64,000 bases of DNA from an uncultured Clostridia bacterium (GTDB lineage: Bacteria; Bacillota; Clostridia; TANB77; CAG-508), in the NCBI GenBank assembly GCA_934133005.1, contig CAKPAI010000001.1:64478-128477 (forward strand), given 5' to 3'. The notes beneath the pieces were generated by a model. It was given only the letters and a program-made list of their open reading frames with translations. It was not told the DNA's origin and searched no databases. Shown here one piece after another: positions 17,640 through 54,142 of the stretch. A program made the position numbers and the translations under genes. Numbering within the stretch: the first letter of the stretch is position 1; each line of letters opens with the position of its first letter.

Positions 17640-17960
17640 TTCCTTTCTATATCAAAAATAGCCGTCACTATAAGCTTTTAGACTTATAGGACGACTATAT
17701 ATTAATCGTGGTACCACCTATATTCGTTATTTCTAACCTCATTATCTTTTAACGCAAGTTTACGGCCTTTTTTACTGCTATTTCAAAAAGACGCCTCCAA
17801 AGTGAAATTATATGCAACTAATATATAAATGAATTTCAGCCTAGTTCATTTTCTCTAAAATATATTTTGCAGTTGCTTTTTTGCTTTTTCTCAGGCTTTA
17901 ACTTTAAGTATTATATACTATTTTAGCAAGGTTTGCAATATGTTTTAGAGAAAATAAAAC
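17640..17960 (-). promoter_or_regulatory. T-box riboswitch leader of the pheST operon
   Basis: Minus strand carries AATATAGGTGGTACCACG (T-box consensus AAnnnGGGTGGnACCGCG) at plus 17703-17722, followed by a terminator hairpin CGTCCTATAAG...CTTATAGTGACG and a T-run. Confidence 0.65.
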
Positions 17961-18012: not shown

Positions 18013-19884
18013 CTACACAAGCACCGCACGGAACCCGTAGATGCAAGCGGCAGTGCCATCAAGACGGTTGAAACAGAAGAGACCAGCACCGTAGCCAGTG
18101 CCCCACCCACCACCGCGAAGGAAGAACGGACCATCCAGTGAAAGAAAGTACGAGCAATCATTATACCAGCTCGAGTTACCATTTCCTTCTGTTGATGTTT
18201 CAAATATAGCACTACCGTATATTACTCTATTTACTTTGCTACCGTTAGTAGCACTCTGCAAGCCTTTTGCATAATTGTAGTTTAATATACTTGCTGCAGT
18301 GTAATCATCTCCACTATATGTTCCAGCTTTTTCATCTGGACTATATGCATACATAGTTGCATATTTACTACTTGCATTTAATAAATTTCCTTTTTCATCT
18401 GTTACAAATGCTTTTTTATTCTTCGTTGCACTTGTATATGCATTATAACTATTTCCATATGATGTATGGTTAGATGTTGTTTTATTTGTTATATAATCAG
18501 CTGTTCTTTCCCATTCTCCTCCTGACATATCAAATATTCCATACACATTTCCTGTTGTACTTGATTTTCCTCCACCAACTTCATTCCATACTTTTATATT
18601 AGCAGATTTTCTTTTATCTGCATCATTTACTTGATCTATACTTGATATTAATACAGAGCCGTCACTTGCATCTCTACTTGATTCTACTCCTGTTATAGCA
18701 TATACTCCTAAATATGGATTTACATATTTACCATTTCCATCTTTTGTGTCATCTGCAACTGTTCCACTTGCTGTTCCACTATTCATATTTACATTATTTA
18801 TATAAATATCATCTTTATTTAAACCATATTTACTTTTTCCTAAATATGCTGCAGCTCCCCATTCACTATTTTTCATTAAATGACTATCTGTATCACTACT
18901 TAATCCATATACATTATTATTTTCATTTAGAACACTACATAATGCAAATGCTTCTTTATGGTTTACATAGTTCATAGAATATGAAGTTCCTTGAAATGAT
19001 GGATAACTTATTTTTGTTTCTGTGTTTCCATACTCTCCATCAAGCCAGTTTCTTGCTTTTATACTACCATCAAATTTTCCAGTAGTTGTTACATCTTCTC
19101 CCTTATCGTTTTTACTTGTTTGCTCTGTAACTTTACTTTCTGCATATGCAGCCCATACACTACCTTGTGTATATTTTACTGTACTTTTTATATTTGGTGT
19201 AGAATTTCCATTTGATGTTGCAAATCCAGCCTCAAATTTTGCTACCCATATTCCAGTAAGTTCACTATCCCATCCTCCATTTGCAAATCCAATTGAGCTT
19301 TCATTTGTAAATGCTGGATGAACAGTATATTCATTACTTGTGTCTGGTGTATAATCTGTCGTTGCACGAGCTGCCTTTTTTATTTTTCCTTCTGATTCGT
19401 AATAATAATCAGTTTTTCCAATTAGAAATACCACATCAAATGTTTTTGTTTCACTATTTACTTTATATGCAAATCTTGGCACCCATACCCACATACTTCC
19501 ATCTTTAGTCTGCGCATTTGCCCAATGCTTTGCATCATAATCATACCATTTACTATCTCCAATAGTAGTTGTTTTTGCATTATACATTTTTGTAGTGCTA
19601 TTTTCTTCAAAATATATTGGTGTCATTCCTGTTTTTAAACTTGGTTTATTCACCCCATTATCATATTCAGATGATACTTGTGATATTTGAGCTTCAAGTT
19701 CTTCTATTGTGCTATACTCACCCTCTGTTGCATCTTTAGTTGCTTTTGCAGCTTCTTTTGCTCTTGCTATCAATCCATTTTGTCCTACTACCAAATTTAT
19801 TGATACACCTGCTAAAATTAAAAGTACTACTATTGTAACTACCAAAGCAACTAATGTTATTCCTAAATCCCTATTTCTTTTCAT
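18013..19884 (-). CDS. prepilin-like N-terminus / FGE-sulfatase (SUMF1-like) domain surface protein, copy 1
   Basis: N-terminus MKRNRDLG|ITLVALVVTIVVLLILAGV is a short basic leader followed by a hydrophobic helix, with Glu5 replaced by Ala. The C-terminal domain carries MWVWVPRF..., GIFDMSGGEWERT, RGGGW and GFRAVLV, all FGE-sulfatase hallmarks. A long S/T/N/G/Y-rich region sits in between. Confidence 0.6.
   Translation of the reverse strand: MKRNRDLGITLVALVVTIVVLLILAGVSINLVVGQNGLIARAKEAAKATKDATEGEYSTIEELEAQISQVSSEYDNGVNKPSLKTGMTPIYFEENSTTKMYNAKTTTIGDSKWYDYDAKHWANAQTKDGSMWVWVPRFAYKVNSETKTFDVVFLIGKTDYYYESEGKIKKAARATTDYTPDTSNEYTVHPAFTNESSIGFANGGWDSELTGIWVAKFEAGFATSNGNSTPNIKSTVKYTQGSVWAAYAESKVTEQTSKNDKGEDVTTTGKFDGSIKARNWLDGEYGNTETKISYPSFQGTSYSMNYVNHKEAFALCSVLNENNNVYGLSSDTDSHLMKNSEWGAAAYLGKSKYGLNKDDIYINNVNMNSGTASGTVADDTKDGNGKYVNPYLGVYAITGVESSRDASDGSVLISSIDQVNDADKRKSANIKVWNEVGGGKSSTTGNVYGIFDMSGGEWERTADYITNKTTSNHTSYGNSYNAYTSATKNKKAFVTDEKGNLLNASSKYATMYAYSPDEKAGTYSGDDYTAASILNYNYAKGLQSATNGSKVNRVIYGSAIFETSTEGNGNSSWYNDCSYFLSLDGPFFLRGGGWGTGYGAGLFCFNRLDGTAACIYGFRAVLV
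18150..19884. repeat. ~1.7-kb segmental duplication, copy A (pairs with 27010-28737)
   Basis: Positions 18160-19295 are identical to 27021-28155 base for base. About 95% identity extends to roughly 19690 and about 80% further 5'. Confidence 0.9.
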
Positions 19885-26862: not shown

Positions 26863-28737
26863 CTACACAAGCACCGCACGGAACCCGTTGTTGTAATTGG
26901 CATTGCCATTATTACGGTTGAAATAGAACAGACCAGCACCATTGCCATTATCCCATCTACCACCGCGAATGAAGAACGGATTATTCAGCGAAGGAAAGTA
27001 CGAGCAGTCATTATACCAGCTCGAGTTACCATTTCCTTCTGTTGATGTTTCAAATATAGCACTACCGTATATTACTCTATTTACTTTGCTACCGTTAGTA
27101 GCACTCTGCAAGCCTTTTGCATAATTGTAGTTTAATATACTTGCTGCAGTGTAATCATCTCCACTATATGTTCCAGCTTTTTCATCTGGACTATATGCAT
27201 ACATAGTTGCATATTTACTACTTGCATTTAATAAATTTCCTTTTTCATCTGTTACAAATGCTTTTTTATTCTTCGTTGCACTTGTATATGCATTATAACT
27301 ATTTCCATATGATGTATGGTTAGATGTTGTTTTATTTGTTATATAATCAGCTGTTCTTTCCCATTCTCCTCCTGACATATCAAATATTCCATACACATTT
27401 CCTGTTGTACTTGATTTTCCTCCACCAACTTCATTCCATACTTTTATATTAGCAGATTTTCTTTTATCTGCATCATTTACTTGATCTATACTTGATATTA
27501 ATACAGAGCCGTCACTTGCATCTCTACTTGATTCTACTCCTGTTATAGCATATACTCCTAAATATGGATTTACATATTTACCATTTCCATCTTTTGTGTC
27601 ATCTGCAACTGTTCCACTTGCTGTTCCACTATTCATATTTACATTATTTATATAAATATCATCTTTATTTAAACCATATTTACTTTTTCCTAAATATGCT
27701 GCAGCTCCCCATTCACTATTTTTCATTAAATGACTATCTGTATCACTACTTAATCCATATACATTATTATTTTCATTTAGAACACTACATAATGCAAATG
27801 CTTCTTTATGGTTTACATAGTTCATAGAATATGAAGTTCCTTGAAATGATGGATAACTTATTTTTGTTTCTGTGTTTCCATACTCTCCATCAAGCCAGTT
27901 TCTTGCTTTTATACTACCATCAAATTTTCCAGTAGTTGTTACATCTTCTCCCTTATCGTTTTTACTTGTTTGCTCTGTAACTTTACTTTCTGCATATGCA
28001 GCCCATACACTACCTTGTGTATATTTTACTGTACTTTTTATATTTGGTGTAGAATTTCCATTTGATGTTGCAAATCCAGCCTCAAATTTTGCTACCCATA
28101 TTCCAGTAAGTTCACTATCCCATCCTCCATTTGCAAATCCAATTGAACTTTCATTTGTAAATGCTGGATGAACTGTATATTCATTGCTTGTGTCTGGTGT
28201 ATAATCTGTTGTTGCACGAACTGCCTTTTTTATTTTTCCTTCTGATTCGTAATAATAATCAGTTTTTCCAATTAGAAATACTACATCAAATGTTTTTGTT
28301 GCACTATTTACTTTATATGCAAATCTTGGCACCCACACCCACATACTTCCATCTTTAGTCTGTGCATTTGCCCAATGTTTTGCATCATAATCATACCATT
28401 TACTATCTCCAACAGTAGTTGTTTTTGCATCATACATTTTTGTAGTACTATTTTCCTCAAAATATATTGGTGTCATTCCTGTTTTTAAACTTGGTTTATT
28501 CACTTTATCATACTCTGATGATACTTGTGATATTTGAGCCTCAAGTTCTTCTATTGTACTATACTCACCTGCTGCCGCGTCTTTAGTTGCCTTTGCAGAC
28601 TCCTTTGCTCTTGCAATAATTCCATTATCACCAACAAGTGTGTTAATTGTTACTCCTGCTAAAATTAGCAATACAATTATTGTTACAACTAATGCTACTA
28701 ACGTAATACCTGCATTACTTCTAATTTTCTTTTTCAT
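26863..28737 (-). CDS. prepilin-like N-terminus / FGE-sulfatase domain surface protein, copy 2
   Basis: MKKKIRSNAG|ITLVALVVTIIVLLILAGV. The central ~1.1 kb is identical to copy 1. The C-terminal cassette differs and reads RGGRWDNGNGAGLFYFNRNNGNANYNNGFRAVLV. Confidence 0.6.
   Translation of the reverse strand: MKKKIRSNAGITLVALVVTIIVLLILAGVTINTLVGDNGIIARAKESAKATKDAAAGEYSTIEELEAQISQVSSEYDKVNKPSLKTGMTPIYFEENSTTKMYDAKTTTVGDSKWYDYDAKHWANAQTKDGSMWVWVPRFAYKVNSATKTFDVVFLIGKTDYYYESEGKIKKAVRATTDYTPDTSNEYTVHPAFTNESSIGFANGGWDSELTGIWVAKFEAGFATSNGNSTPNIKSTVKYTQGSVWAAYAESKVTEQTSKNDKGEDVTTTGKFDGSIKARNWLDGEYGNTETKISYPSFQGTSYSMNYVNHKEAFALCSVLNENNNVYGLSSDTDSHLMKNSEWGAAAYLGKSKYGLNKDDIYINNVNMNSGTASGTVADDTKDGNGKYVNPYLGVYAITGVESSRDASDGSVLISSIDQVNDADKRKSANIKVWNEVGGGKSSTTGNVYGIFDMSGGEWERTADYITNKTTSNHTSYGNSYNAYTSATKNKKAFVTDEKGNLLNASSKYATMYAYSPDEKAGTYSGDDYTAASILNYNYAKGLQSATNGSKVNRVIYGSAIFETSTEGNGNSSWYNDCSYFPSLNNPFFIRGGRWDNGNGAGLFYFNRNNGNANYNNGFRAVLV
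27010..28737. repeat. ~1.7-kb segmental duplication, copy B (pairs with 18150-19884)
   Basis: See copy A. The flanks outside the CDS are unrelated. Confidence 0.9.
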
Positions 28738-50929: not shown

Positions 50930-51420
50930 TTACTTGATTGAATATGAACTTCCATCTTCACTTAAAATTAATGTTACTGATGAGTTTAAACAAACAACCG
51001 GTCGAATACCAACGCTATTATATATTCCACTCGTATATAAATCTTCTCTTTCTCCTGATACATATTTGTTAAAATTTTTACTATCACTCGGAGCTGCAAC
51101 CCAATAACTTACTCCATTATTATATATAGAATTCTTAACCAGTTTCATTTCATTATACATTTTATAACCAGTATCACTTTGTGATATTTCAATATTTTTA
51201 TCGTAATATTTATTATATGATTTTATAATCATTTCCAATGTAGGTGCCCCAATTACCCAAGCAGCTCTTTTGCCCTATTTATTCCATTTTGTCCTACTAC
51301 TAAGTTTATTGATGCTCTTGCTAAAATTAAAAGTACTACTAAGTCAACTAATGTTATACCGTGATTTTCTTTAATATGTCAGTGTGTACAGCCTCAAGGC
51401 TTTCATAGTATTTCATTATT
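50930..51420 (-). pseudogene. decayed pilin-like gene: degenerate leader MKALRLYTLTY*, out-of-frame G|ITLVDLVVLLILA… segment, plus the 102-aa ORF 50930-51238
   Basis: Leader is homologous to the upstream region of 51447-52770. The (GT)n tract is collapsed to about (GT)3. Internal stops are present. Confidence 0.4.
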
Positions 51421-51446: not shown

Positions 51447-52770
51447 TTATTTTAAAAATAATGTTGCTCGAAAACCAGTATCATTATTTATTATTTGAAT
51501 ATATGTTGCATCCCATCTATTTCCTGCTGCTCCCAAAAATAAGCCAGAACTTCCTCCTCTAAATATTACATTATCATCAACTCCAATATTTAGTTCAGTT
51601 GTATATTCTACTACATTTCCTCCCATATCAAATATATTACTTTTAGCTCCTGTTTGCCCTGTGAGTAATTTCTTTCCTACTCCAGCTTCCTTTATTACAT
51701 ATCCATTACTATCCACCACTTGTTGATTAATCCAATTTTCATTGAATCCATTTATTGACGTTGCATAATTTGTCGCCCCATTGTTCATTATAAAATTTAT
51801 TGCTGTATCCCATGCATAACTTGAGCAAAGATATGTTGTTGCACTAGTTCCGTCTCCGATTTCTTTTGACAAGGAATATGCAGAAGACCATGTTTGCTTG
51901 CTACATACTTCTTTATTACTCTTAATAACTACTTTTTCATCTTCAACACCAACTTCATATCTTCCTATATAGTAACCTCCATATTTCTTTACACTTGCAA
52001 ACTCGCTGTTTATTTGTTTTACTATCTCTTTTGATACTTCTTCATTTATTCCATTATCTGTATCTGTTTTTAAATATGTTACATTACTATCTGTTAGTGT
52101 TAATTCGTCCTTCCACGCTTCTGTTTCATTATCGTTTTCAACATTCCATCTTGTTCTTTGATACTGTAATTTATCACTTCCATCCATTGCACATGGTATC
52201 CATACATATTCATTTCCAGTCGAATCTTCTTTTATTACTAGTCCCTTATCTACTAAGTTTTCTCCTTCTACTGTTGATACTGTAAAGCCTGTTGGTATTG
52301 GTGCTTTTTTACCATTTACATCTGTATAAACTGTACAATCTGTTGTTTCATTTTCACTAAAATCTTGACTACATATTTCTGATAATTTTATTTCATAATT
52401 TCCATACTCGGCTTTTGTTTTCAAAACTGTATCTGATTTCAAGTAATAACTTTCTGGCACATTTTCAAAATATCTATCTAATACATCCTTTAAGTTTGTA
52501 TTTAGGAATTCCATAGTTTTTACTTTCGTTTGCTCTGCTACAATTTCTGTTTGTACTTCATCTATTAAACTTGCTAACGTTGTATTCTTCGCTGCCTCTT
52601 TCGCTCTATTTATTAGTCCATTTTGTCCTACTACCAAATTTATTGTTACTCCTGCTAAAATTAAAAGCACTACTATCGTTACCACTAAAGCAACTAACGT
52701 TATACCGTGATTTTCTTTAAGATATCGGTGTGTGTGTGTGTGTGTGTGTGTACAGCCTCAAGGCTTTCAT
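51447..52770 (-). CDS. prepilin-like/FGE-domain paralog, currently out of frame with both upstream ATGs (track ORF 51447-52685 begins with GTG inside the hydrophobic helix)
   Basis: Body frame reads ...(TH)4 RYLKENHG|ITLVALVVTIVVLLILAGV... with FGE motifs NIFDMGGNVVEYT, RGGSSG and GFRATLFLK. ATG 52768-52770 (MKALRLY-) is at +1 relative to the body and ATG 52778-52780 (MKNYESLEAV-) at -1. The two are separated from the body by (GT)12. Confidence 0.5.
52728..52751. repeat. (GT)12 / (AC)12 dinucleotide microsatellite in the 5' region of the pilin-like gene
   Basis: Read directly from the sequence. It is the only long dinucleotide SSR in the window. Confidence 0.95.
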
Positions 52771-52894
52771 AATTTTTCATTTTATTTTTCTCCTTTGCTT
52801 TTTATCATTTATTTTAGAAATAATGTTACTCGGAAGCCATAACGAGTACCATTATCACTAGTACCACCATCGCAACGATATCCGGGCAGGACCT

Positions 52895-54142
52895 TTATTT
52901 CCATAGTATCCTCCGACGTAATACAATTGGATCTAATATCCCTGGATTTATCTCTGTTGTAAATTCTATTATATTTCCACCCATATCAAAAATATTGCTT
53001 TTAGCTGTCGTTTTTCCTGTTAGTAACCTTTCATTGTCTTCTTCTGATTTAATTATAATTCCATTATTGTTCGTTATACTCTTATTGCTCCAATTTTCAT
53101 TAAATCCATCTATTGACTTTGCGTAATTCTTTGTTCCATTATTCATTATAAAGTTTACTGCTGTATCCCACGCATAGCTTGAACATAAATACGTTGTTGC
53201 ACCGGTTCCTGCTCCTATTCCTTTTGCTAAATTATAAGCTTCTGTCCACCTTGTTGTATTTCCATTTACTGTTCCTGCATATGGTTCTTTATTTGCTTGC
53301 ACTACTGCCTTGTAATTTTCTCCTATACCTGTTTCATATCTTCCTATATAGTAACCTCCATATTTCTTTACACTTGTAAACTCGCTGTTTATTTGATTTA
53401 CTATCTCTTTTGATACTTCTTCATTTATTCCATTATCTGTTTCTGTTTTTAAATATGTTACATTGCTATCTGTTAGTGTTAATTCATCTTTCCATGATTC
53501 TGTTCCATTATCCGTTTCAACACCCCATCTTGTTCTTTGATACTGTAATTTATCGCTTCCATCCATTGAGCATGGTATCCATACATATTCATTTCCAGTC
53601 GAATCTTCTCTTATTACTAGACCTTTATCAACTAAGTTCTCTCCTTCTACTGTTGACACGGTAAAGCCTGTTGGCACTGGTGCTTTATTTCCATTTCTAT
53701 CTGTATATGTTGTACAATCTGTTGTTTCATTTTCACTAAAATCTTGACTACATATTTCTGATAATTTTATTTCATAATTTCCATACTCGGCTTTTGTTTT
53801 CAAAACTGTATCTGATTTCAAGTAATAACTTTCTGGCACATTTTCAAAATATCTATCTAATACATCCTTTAAGTTTGTATTTAGGAATTCCATAGTTTTT
53901 ACTTTCGTTTGCTCTGCTACAATTTCTGTTTGTACTTCATCTATTAAACTTGCTAACGTTGTATTCTTCGCTGCTTCTTTCGCTCTATTTATTAGTCCAT
54001 TTTGTCCTACCACTAAATTTATTGATACTCCTGCTAAAATTAAAAGTACAACAATTGTTACAACAAGCGCAACTAACGTTATACCTGAATTTTTCTTATT
54101 CATCTCACTATATATAGTTTTTATTCTATTTGCTTCTCTCAT
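52895..54142 (-). CDS. prepilin-like/FGE-domain paralog with a frameshifted, GC-rich C-terminal end
   Basis: MREANRIKTIYSEMNKKNSG|ITLVALVV… About 85% identical to 51447-52685. The ORF ends at …ILDPIVLRRRILWK*, but the other two frames over 52815-52900 encode …VGGYYGNKGPAR… and …RYGFRVTLFLK*, the expected FGE C-terminus. Confidence 0.55.
   Translation of the reverse strand: MREANRIKTIYSEMNKKNSGITLVALVVTIVVLLILAGVSINLVVGQNGLINRAKEAAKNTTLASLIDEVQTEIVAEQTKVKTMEFLNTNLKDVLDRYFENVPESYYLKSDTVLKTKAEYGNYEIKLSEICSQDFSENETTDCTTYTDRNGNKAPVPTGFTVSTVEGENLVDKGLVIREDSTGNEYVWIPCSMDGSDKLQYQRTRWGVETDNGTESWKDELTLTDSNVTYLKTETDNGINEEVSKEIVNQINSEFTSVKKYGGYYIGRYETGIGENYKAVVQANKEPYAGTVNGNTTRWTEAYNLAKGIGAGTGATTYLCSSYAWDTAVNFIMNNGTKNYAKSIDGFNENWSNKSITNNNGIIIKSEEDNERLLTGKTTAKSNIFDMGGNIIEFTTEINPGILDPIVLRRRILWK

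Follow-up and report, generated by a model that had tools for sequence, protein, structure and literature searches.

A length-variable AC tract as a probable translational phase switch of a surface-protein gene in uncultured gut Clostridia

Introduction

What does a run of twelve GT units do when it separates the start codons of a gene from the body of that gene? The question is raised by a 64,000-nt stretch of DNA from an uncultured Clostridia bacterium (contig CAKPAI010000001.1, forward-strand positions 64,478 to 128,477). This whole stretch is referred to as the window, and positions are counted from its first letter. A minus-strand gene of the window, which appears to encode a membrane-anchored surface protein and is called here the switch gene, carries the run in its 5' coding region. 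A preliminary description of the window had proposed a slipped-strand phase switch that is presently in the OFF state. The analysis presented here supports that reading. The tract, which is (AC)n on the coding strand, is probably a hypermutable simple sequence repeat (SSR) that acts as a translational phase-variation (contingency) switch; we place the probability at roughly 85%. The evidence lies in the anatomy of the locus, the frame arithmetic, the length polymorphism of the tract in a near-identical background, the natural use of all three frames, and the predicted fold of the protein.

Repeat-driven phase variation is textbook knowledge for a few pathogens, for example Haemophilus, Neisseria, Helicobacter, and Campylobacter. 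Work on phase variation in gut commensals centres, to our knowledge, on DNA inversions and diversity-generating retroelements (DGRs), and we know of no repeat switch in this group. The locus provides unusually direct natural evidence for dinucleotide-slippage switching of a surface protein of a DGR-target family in gut Clostridia.

Layout of the tract and its leader

On the minus strand the elements follow one another in the order Shine-Dalgarno (SD) motif, first start codon (ATG1), second start codon (ATG2), a conserved flank AAGCCTTGAGGCTGTA, (AC)12, the body beginning ...RYLKENHG ITLVALVV..., and the stop codon. The features are as follows, with a slash marking the candidate leader cleavage site here and below.

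52778..52793, minus strand: SD GGAG (52790-52793), a 9-nt spacer, and ATG1 (52778-52780; MKNYESLEAV), which is in the body frame if n mod 3 = 2
52768..52770, minus strand: ATG2 (MKALRLY), 10 nt downstream of ATG1 and in another frame; in the body frame if n mod 3 = 1
52751..52766, minus strand: conserved 16-nt flank AAGCCTTGAGGCTGTA, whose final A is the first base of the tract; contains the body-frame TGA (52758-52760)
52728..52751, minus strand: (AC)12, the candidate hypermutable repeat within the 5' part of the coding sequence; read in frame, it encodes (His-Thr)n
51447..52727, minus strand: body of the switch gene, 426 codons plus stop (51447-51449), starting RYLKENHG-ITLVALVVTIVVLLILAGV...
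52644..52706, minus strand: pilin-like N-terminal segment G/ITLVALVVTIVVLLILAGV, the hydrophobic anchor; contains GTG (52683-52685)

The (GT)12 run occupies exactly 52728-52751, and nowhere else in the whole 64-kb window (GC 29.4%) does a dinucleotide run reach five units. A GT run of 16 nt did not occur once in 100 dinucleotide-preserving shuffles. The repeat thus lies between a start codon and the body, within the 5' coding region, and the positions and frames given earlier for the tract, ATG1, ATG2, and the TGA were all found to be correct on re-checking.

The frame rule was obtained by rebuilding the sequence in silico with 8 to 16 AC units. When n mod 3 = 2, ATG1 is joined to the body (443 aa for n=11), and when n mod 3 = 1, ATG2 is joined to it (441 aa for n=13 and 443 aa for n=16). 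When n mod 3 = 0, as in the window, only peptides of 26 aa and 17 aa are produced in the simulation and the body is left without an in-frame ATG. The first body-frame start after the TGA is then the GTG at 52685, which lies within the hydrophobic segment and has no visible SD motif ahead of it. The simulated lengths bear out the earlier arithmetic, in which 11 units join ATG1 and 13 units join ATG2. They also agree with the suggestion that the gene in the window looks OFF, because n=12 leaves this GTG as its sole in-frame start.

How would such a switch work? Slipped-strand mispairing at replication would add or remove AC units, and each unit would shift the frame by 2 nt. With n mod 3 = 2 the body would be read from ATG1, whose SD is well spaced, probably giving full expression. 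With n mod 3 = 1 it would be read from ATG2, which is probably a weak start because 19 nt separate it from the SD. With n mod 3 = 0 both starts would yield short peptides and the gene would be OFF. Tract length itself would have no effect on the exposed part of the protein, because (His-Thr)n lies in the N-terminal tail before the hydrophobic segment. Phage, host immunity, or adhesion may be the selective agent that maintains the switch.

Could the tract instead act chiefly on transcription or mRNA structure, through spacing or Z-DNA? Alternating purine-pyrimidine tracts can form Z-DNA, and a small hairpin stands ahead of the tract. We regard this explanation as very improbable. The tract is located downstream of the SD and both start codons, and the frame logic is kept across the three different cassette architectures described below. 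Furthermore, predicted RNA folding is the same for n=3 to 16, and the SD and the starts stay accessible throughout, which argues for an effect on the reading frame; a mechanism based on mRNA structure was dropped for the fusion form of the switch, as leader folding showed no length dependence over this range.

Tract length among near-identical strains

If the tract is hypermutable, its length should differ between strains that are otherwise alike. Six independent human-gut metagenome contigs were compared with the window, with 0-4 mismatches over 5.7-13.3 kb. L002 and L004-L007 were reached via the neighbouring paralogue, and L001 via an exact match to the body protein (P0001).

L001 (Hadza gut metagenome): 3 substitutions in 13,332 bp, n=16, window gene order kept
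L002: 0 mismatches in 9,250 bp, n=11
L004: 0 mismatches, 100% identical over 7,396 bp, n=12
L005: 0 mismatches in 5,764 bp, n=13
L006: 4 mismatches, n=11
L007: 4 mismatches, n=14

Including the window, the unit numbers in the seven copies are 11, 11, 12, 12, 13, 14, and 16. Each length-variant contig has its indel relative to the window at one site alone, 52750-52751, inside the tract, and nowhere else. In other words, the comparison of orthologous loci that had been proposed as a check reveals a tract polymorphism in a background that is almost invariant. At least four changes of tract length stand against a handful of substitutions in ~9 kb, from which we infer that the tract may mutate thousands of times faster than the average base; within a clone, too, it would be expected to switch. 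The (CA)3 tract of a decayed copy of the gene located next to it does not vary across the five related loci that extend that far, and therefore serves as a stable internal control.

Use of the three frames in public gene calls

Are the predicted frames used in nature? P0001, from L001, begins MKALRLY(TH)5RYLK, which is the ATG2 product with 16 units, and its body is 100% identical to that of the window, as is the body of P0121. ATG1 products appear among the public gene calls as P0121, P0125, P0126, and P0133. At the window locus itself, ATG1 products are found with n=11 (27 contigs), n=14, and n=17, and an ATG2 product with n=16.

A wider census added three clusters of paralogues or orthologues, 72-77% identical, to the 90% cluster of the protein itself. 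Over these four 90% clusters, about 71 contigs carry an ATG1 product, about 25 an ATG2 product, and about 62 a truncated one. The ATG1 class has the leaders MKNYESLEAV or MKCYESLEAV with 1-6 His-Thr pairs, the ATG2 class starts with MKALRLY and comes in several lengths, and the truncated class consists of products starting at internal ATGs. One truncated call, of 396 aa, was checked and corresponds to n=12 in L004. Gene calls of 396 aa occur on 19 contigs, some of them also in NCBI. Thus, by simulation and gene calls together, the body comes into frame with a start codon or falls out of it as the tract length changes, and all of the states occur in nature. The slipped-strand reading is supported by the tract lengths in the population and by public calls of ATG1, ATG2, and shortened products.

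Two other explanations bear on these alleles. The first is that 12 units are an assembly or sequencing artefact and that the true gene is in frame. Polymerase stutter is prone to occur at dinucleotide runs, and contigs tend to end near such tracts: among 51 complete contigs of the wider set described below (L031-L110), 13 have the tract at most 120 nt from a contig end, compared with 4.0 expected (Poisson p ~3e-4). This excess could reflect mixed lengths within samples, and equally well repeated sequence. An artefact is nevertheless the least credible account, because exactly 12 units are also present in L004, an independent assembly that is 100% identical to the window over 7,396 bp, the 396-aa calls of the n=12 type recur on the 19 contigs, and single short reads span tracts of 24-32 bp.

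The second is that (His-Thr)n is a functional peptide, for example a metal-binding element or a spacer, whose length tunes the protein without switching it. His-rich repeats can bind metal, and the in-frame alleles differ by multiples of three units (n=11, 14, 17). Such tuning seems highly unlikely, as out-of-frame lengths are common, (TA)n, which encodes Tyr-Ile, replaces (CA)n in relatives, and many loci have the repeat in a separate short upstream open reading frame (ORF). Moreover, (His-Thr)n precedes the membrane anchor in the protein.

The leaders are mosaic among P0005, P0127, P0129, P0132, P0134, and P0164. Repeat-free leaders (MREANRIK... and MKRNRDLG) occur on bodies of the AC type, with MREANRIK... 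on the window-gene body in P0127 and others, and the AC leader is found on the body of the truncated upstream paralogue (P0005). To judge from these combinations, leaders seem to be swapped between paralogues via recombination in the conserved anchor-coding segment.

Nature of the encoded protein

The protein had been described as pilin-like at its N-terminus and as related to the formylglycine-generating enzyme (FGE) in the remainder. Direct Pfam and NCBIfam scans of the window protein returned nothing significant, and a profile search of PDB sequences gave chance-level matches alone. At the N-terminus, the N_methyl model PF07963 scores below its cutoff of 21.2 bits, with 18.2 on the paralogue and 14.3 on P0121; weak matches to it occur in 23 of 24 homologues, and TIGR02532 does not match the window protein. 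A prepilin was taken to have Gly at -1, Phe or Met at +1, Glu at +5, and a passing Pfam or NCBIfam model, whereas the window motif G/ITLVA has Ile at +1 and Ala at +5. Because N_methyl stays sub-threshold and neither Phe or Met at +1 nor Glu at +5 is present, the label pilin-like holds as a resemblance only, that is, a short charged tail followed by a hydrophobic anchor in the sequence, and not as an assignment to the prepilins. No prepilin peptidase or pilus assembly gene was found among the 28 window ORFs scanned, a set that covers roughly half of those with 120 aa or more. A pilus gene cluster has been reported for relatives in the order TANB77, whose pilin-like proteins have also been connected with the response to immunotherapy (PMC11680825). 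The switch protein would begin with MKNYESLEAVHT... or, if the leader is cleaved, with ITLVAL....

The C-terminal part of the protein was assigned by fold.

51450..52310, minus strand: C-terminal domain with the FGE / C-type-lectin fold of DGR variable proteins (AlphaFold2, Foldseek, hhalign); the last ~40 codons of the switch gene correspond to the DGR variable region

A direct scan with PF03781 does not match the window protein, and 7 of 24 homologues give sub-threshold matches. A family member from L046 passes this model with 27.2 bits (cutoff 23.3). An hhalign comparison of the window family with a family that is mostly annotated as PF03781 gave a probability of 100% and an E-value of 4e-40 over 254 columns, extending to the last residue. 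AlphaFold2 modelled residues 140-426 (the C-terminal 287 residues) with a broader alignment at pLDDT 92.3 and pTM 0.92; a full-length model made with 24 close homologues had a pLDDT of 48 and was not used. The best Foldseek matches in the PDB were TaqVP (5vf4, E 7e-5), PorK (9mzu), and CarF, and further matches included Mtd of a Bordetella phage (1yu0) and the FGE of S. coelicolor (2q17). The predicted model therefore has the FGE-sulfatase / C-type-lectin fold, and the FGE label stands at the level of the fold, although not as a direct Pfam match. Taken together with the anchor, the model suggests that the switch protein is a membrane-anchored member of a DGR-diversified family with a predicted ligand-binding fold.

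DGR-associated relatives and the tandem array

Is the binding end of the switch protein itself diversified? In the window, tblastn found neither a reverse transcriptase nor Avd. The variable-region-like end of the switch gene has 0 mismatches among L001-L007, and the ends of AC-tract genes differ from the DGR template of L023 at all four bases. Because no template matches it, the binding end of the switch protein would be fixed, and only its presence would vary. The window gene thus does not behave as an active DGR target, whereas a 435-aa paralogue in L023-L030 does.

Gene order in L023-L030 (for example, L023 4802-9533) is AC-tract gene, 435-aa paralogue, bAvd, reverse transcriptase, and template repeat. 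The AC-tract genes of these loci are 77% identical to the window gene, and the second paralogue has 431-437 aa. The template encodes ...RGGNYNNNNNPAGNRFDNNAGNSNSNYGFRATL and is identical in the seven L023-L030 loci that reach it. Between samples, the variable region of the paralogue beside the DGR differs at template adenines only, and by this sequence signature the DGR in L023-L030 is active. In L030, the variable region of the paralogue is interrupted by a run of N where the assembly breaks. Adenine-specific variation in one paralogue and an invariant, template-less end in the AC-tract gene indicate a division within one family: one paralogue is diversified in sequence by the DGR, and another is probably switched on and off by the repeat.

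The window locus is a tandem array of three copies, namely an upstream paralogue, the switch gene, and a remnant. Its features other than the switch gene are as follows.

52895..54142, minus strand: upstream paralogue, 415 aa, with the repeat-free leader MREANRIKTIYSEMNKKNSG/ITLVAL; C-terminal end shortened by frameshifts
52809..52894, minus strand: out-of-frame remainder of the variable-region-like end of the upstream paralogue (...GFRVTLFLK, then stop), with the switch-gene SD directly after it
51381..51416, minus strand: leader of the decayed third copy, with ATG1', ATG2', and the motif (copy at 51387-51402) kept, and (CA)3
50930..51380, minus strand: remnant body of the decayed third copy with a truncated anchor; 102-aa ORF at 50930-51238, end ...GIRPVVCL

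The upstream paralogue ends early, in ...LRRRILWK and a stop; against the family and the DGR template, its variable-region-like end shows a 2-nt gap and an insertion of 1 nt. The identical shortened form is present on at least 58 contigs (P0010 on 17 and P0012 on 41), so the truncation is a fixed state and not a sequencing error. The decayed copy retains both ATGs and the flanking motif with its tract reduced to (CA)3 and stops after it, much as had been described. Its 102-aa ORF has a DUF6273-like end at a sub-threshold E-value of 0.008, and its C-terminal domain is unlike that of the two upstream copies.

The substitutions in L006 and L007 form two pairs at equivalent positions of the paralogues, 53885 and 53895 in one and 52506 and 52516 in the other (offset 1,379 bp). 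The pairing suggests gene conversion between the copies or assembly cross-mapping.

Several points weigh against the switch. Contig counts may include one strain several times, and a metagenome consensus masks minority alleles. Scans for promoters and terminators around the switch gene gave nothing beyond the level expected by chance. The n mod 3 = 1 state may be effectively OFF, because ATG2 has no usably spaced SD and a second start codon of its type is rare, being present in 15 of 128 cassette loci among the matches listed. In addition, the whole array could be decaying, because the paralogues on both sides are damaged.

The last point corresponds to a rival explanation in which the switch gene is a decaying, unused pseudogene with an unstable microsatellite, whose length changes are neutral noise. 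The frameshifted end of the upstream paralogue and the remnant downstream would fit such decay, as would the out-of-frame alleles on about 40% of contigs and the variable-region-like end that a DGR template no longer matches. We consider it unlikely. The 1.28-kb body is intact, with no stop or indel in the seven copies and 0-4 substitutions, and the commonest allele class is the full-length in-frame one. Furthermore, the leader and the repeat are retained before intact genes in many species and phages, and it is in the actual pseudogene next door that the tract has collapsed to (CA)3.

A cassette shared with other genes and phages

Is the tract with its leader peculiar to this gene? In distant relatives of the switch protein (32-45% identity), the tract behind the same flank is (AC)11, (AC)16 (twice), (TA)5(CA)5, (TA)8, or (TA)11. 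Paralogues and distant relatives share the leader with many different tract lengths, in line with the earlier suggestion that the repeat is an evolved, unstable feature of the sub-family. The flank motif stands before every (CA) tract of at least six units in the loci compared, and exact copies of the 16-nt flank occur twice in the window against 0.06 expected. A pattern search with AAGCCTTGNGGCTGTA followed by five YA units returned at least 120 metagenome contigs and 30 IMG/VR viral contigs (L031-L180); AAGCCTTGNGGCTGTA with (CA)n/(TA)n is present at no fewer than 151 sites in at least 150 metagenome and viral contigs.

The counts in this paragraph and the next hold among the matches listed. 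Tracts in cassette loci range from 5 to 25 units, and n varies within groups of contigs whose flanks are identical (15/13/11/6, 18/16/15/14, 8/16/14/11, and 24/22/18). The cassette is always situated 3-20 codons past an ATG, which in most loci is preceded by an SD motif at a distance of 6-11 nt.

Three architectures were found. In the first (a), the cassette forms a fusion with a gene whose product has a membrane anchor, pilin-like or of another type; on unrelated metagenome contigs, 14 such fusions are in frame and 15 out of frame, two of the latter being in frame with a second ATG. In the second (b), it lies in a short upstream ORF, and within ~35 nt a new SD and ATG follow inside a hairpin of -10 to -17 kcal/mol, whose pairing shows compensatory changes between families. 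Two frames stop ahead of this hairpin, and the third enters it and stops at or over the ATG. In the third (c), the short upstream ORF is followed by a predicted strong terminator hairpin, and in 35 of 40 loci the stop codon lies inside the hairpin in one frame and ahead of it in the other two. Of the loci with an upstream ORF, (b) and (c) together, 24 of 66 are now in the long frame, or near one in three. The corresponding read-outs would be an in-frame fusion, an upstream ORF that reaches a hairpin hiding the ribosome-binding site, and an upstream ORF that reaches a terminator hairpin, one frame in three doing so.

Genes downstream of the cassette include further proteins with pilin-like leaders and one signal-peptidase-like gene. 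On phage contigs, the genes downstream of it include some for small proteins with a match to tail-fibre C-terminal tips (phrog_2712, E 8e-19). In L154 (5150-6950, minus strand) and similar viral contigs, the cassette stands after tail-fibre genes and before a holin and an amidase, upstream of a 143-aa tail-fibre-tip-like protein, and near-identical phages have tract lengths of 10, 13, 14, 15, 16, and 17. The gene behind the phage cassette may encode a phase-variable receptor-binding tip. Contingency loci in phages have recently been reported for T-even and other phages (bioRxiv 10.1101/2025.10.21.683753).

What keeps the flank conserved? In isolation the 16-nt flank is predicted to form a 4-bp RNA hairpin (AGCC-UUGN-GGCU, -4.8 kcal/mol). 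Six flank variants that were found without use of the motif have a broken stem and keep a peptide-like pattern, [S/T/N][L/F/V]x[A/T/R][V/L]; synonymous third-position changes are almost absent from them. The large cassette set was fetched with the motif itself and is circular for judging constraint on the flank. The conservation may reflect a DNA, RNA, or peptide constraint or simply a recent spread of the cassette.

These observations can be drawn together in a broader proposal to which we give even odds. It holds that SD, ATG, a leader of 3-20 codons, AAGCCTTGNGGCTGTA, and (CA)n/(TA)n form a portable phase-variation cassette. The cassette would stand before many surface-protein and tail-fibre-tip genes of uncultured low-GC gut Clostridia and their phages, with three read-outs and a dedicated role for the flank, and paralogues of the DGR family would divide diversification and SSR switching between them. 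The flank may, for example, promote slippage or act through the nascent peptide. A literature search found no paper describing this cassette. If the proposal is true, phase-variable genes could be recognized in gut metagenomes by a simple sequence signature, and surface variation in organisms not yet grown would be linked to phage-host conflict in a way that can be tested.

Relation to known switches

By analogy, the mechanism is that of a classical translational contingency switch, that is, of a known kind. The closest precedent in frame logic is licA (lic1) of H. influenzae, in which a CAAT repeat lies just inside the 5' end of the ORF and slippage realigns the upstream starts; starts are available in two of the three frames, so that two length classes are ON and one is OFF (PMC2212159). 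The window gene is alike in having the repeat inside the 5' end of the ORF and starts in two frames. It differs in that licA has a tetranucleotide and encodes a cytoplasmic enzyme of a Gram-negative pathogen, whereas the window gene has a dinucleotide and encodes what appears to be a membrane-anchored surface protein of uncultured gut Clostridia. In oipA of H. pylori, and also babB and sabA, a CT repeat in the N-terminal signal region sets the ON or OFF state through the frame, and many patterns exist among strains (PMC10564699). The likeness to the window gene extends to a dinucleotide repeat in the N-terminal coding part and a state set by the frame; oipA differs in its single start codon, its CT unit, and its Gram-negative outer-membrane product, and no shared flanking cassette has been described for it.

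A different read-out is known from pil1 of S. gallolyticus. There, a GCAGA repeat in a short leader ORF sets whether the ribosome reaches into a terminator hairpin, as was shown experimentally (PMC3894217). This mechanism matches architecture (c) of the cassette, for which it is only predicted, and the window copy is of the direct-fusion form. The pil1 repeat is a pentanucleotide at a single locus of one species. In Neisseria, opa (CTCTT) and pilC (poly-G) have switches in the regions coding for signal peptides, where in-frame length changes are harmless; they resemble the window gene in the placement of the repeat in a cleaved or non-functional leader, and differ in repeat unit and organism and in not being known to share a flank.

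TaqVP, Mtd, and FGE-sulfatase proteins share the predicted C-terminal fold of the window protein, and paralogues of the window protein are true DGR targets. The window gene is unlike such targets, having no template, reverse transcriptase, or Avd nearby and an invariant end, and it would vary through the SSR instead. What is new is the host (uncultured gut Clostridia), the AC unit, the link to a DGR-target family, and a flank common to many genes and phages with three read-outs.

Genomic context

The window is chromosomal. It contains rpoD, dnaG, pheST behind a T-box, a gene for RNase R, and the sporulation genes yunB, sipL, and yabG, and this gene content fits spore-forming Clostridia. Relatives of the protein in species-representative genomes come from metagenome-assembled genomes named 'uncultured Clostridia bacterium' and 'Clostridium sp. 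CAG:245'. The genus CAG-245 belongs to TANB77, an order of uncultured bacteria (PMC11680825).

Two further genes of the window have a G/ITLVALVVTI anchor, with neither a repeat tract nor a Pfam domain. They are located at 26863-28737 (minus strand, 624 aa) and 18013-19884 (minus strand, 623 aa), and are by their sequence additional members of the set of surface proteins with pilin-like leaders. Rfam gave no match near the switch locus; its matches, a T-box and tRNAs, lie elsewhere in the window. The T-box leader (17684-17901, minus strand) stands upstream of pheS and pheT and is an ordinary feature of Bacillota.

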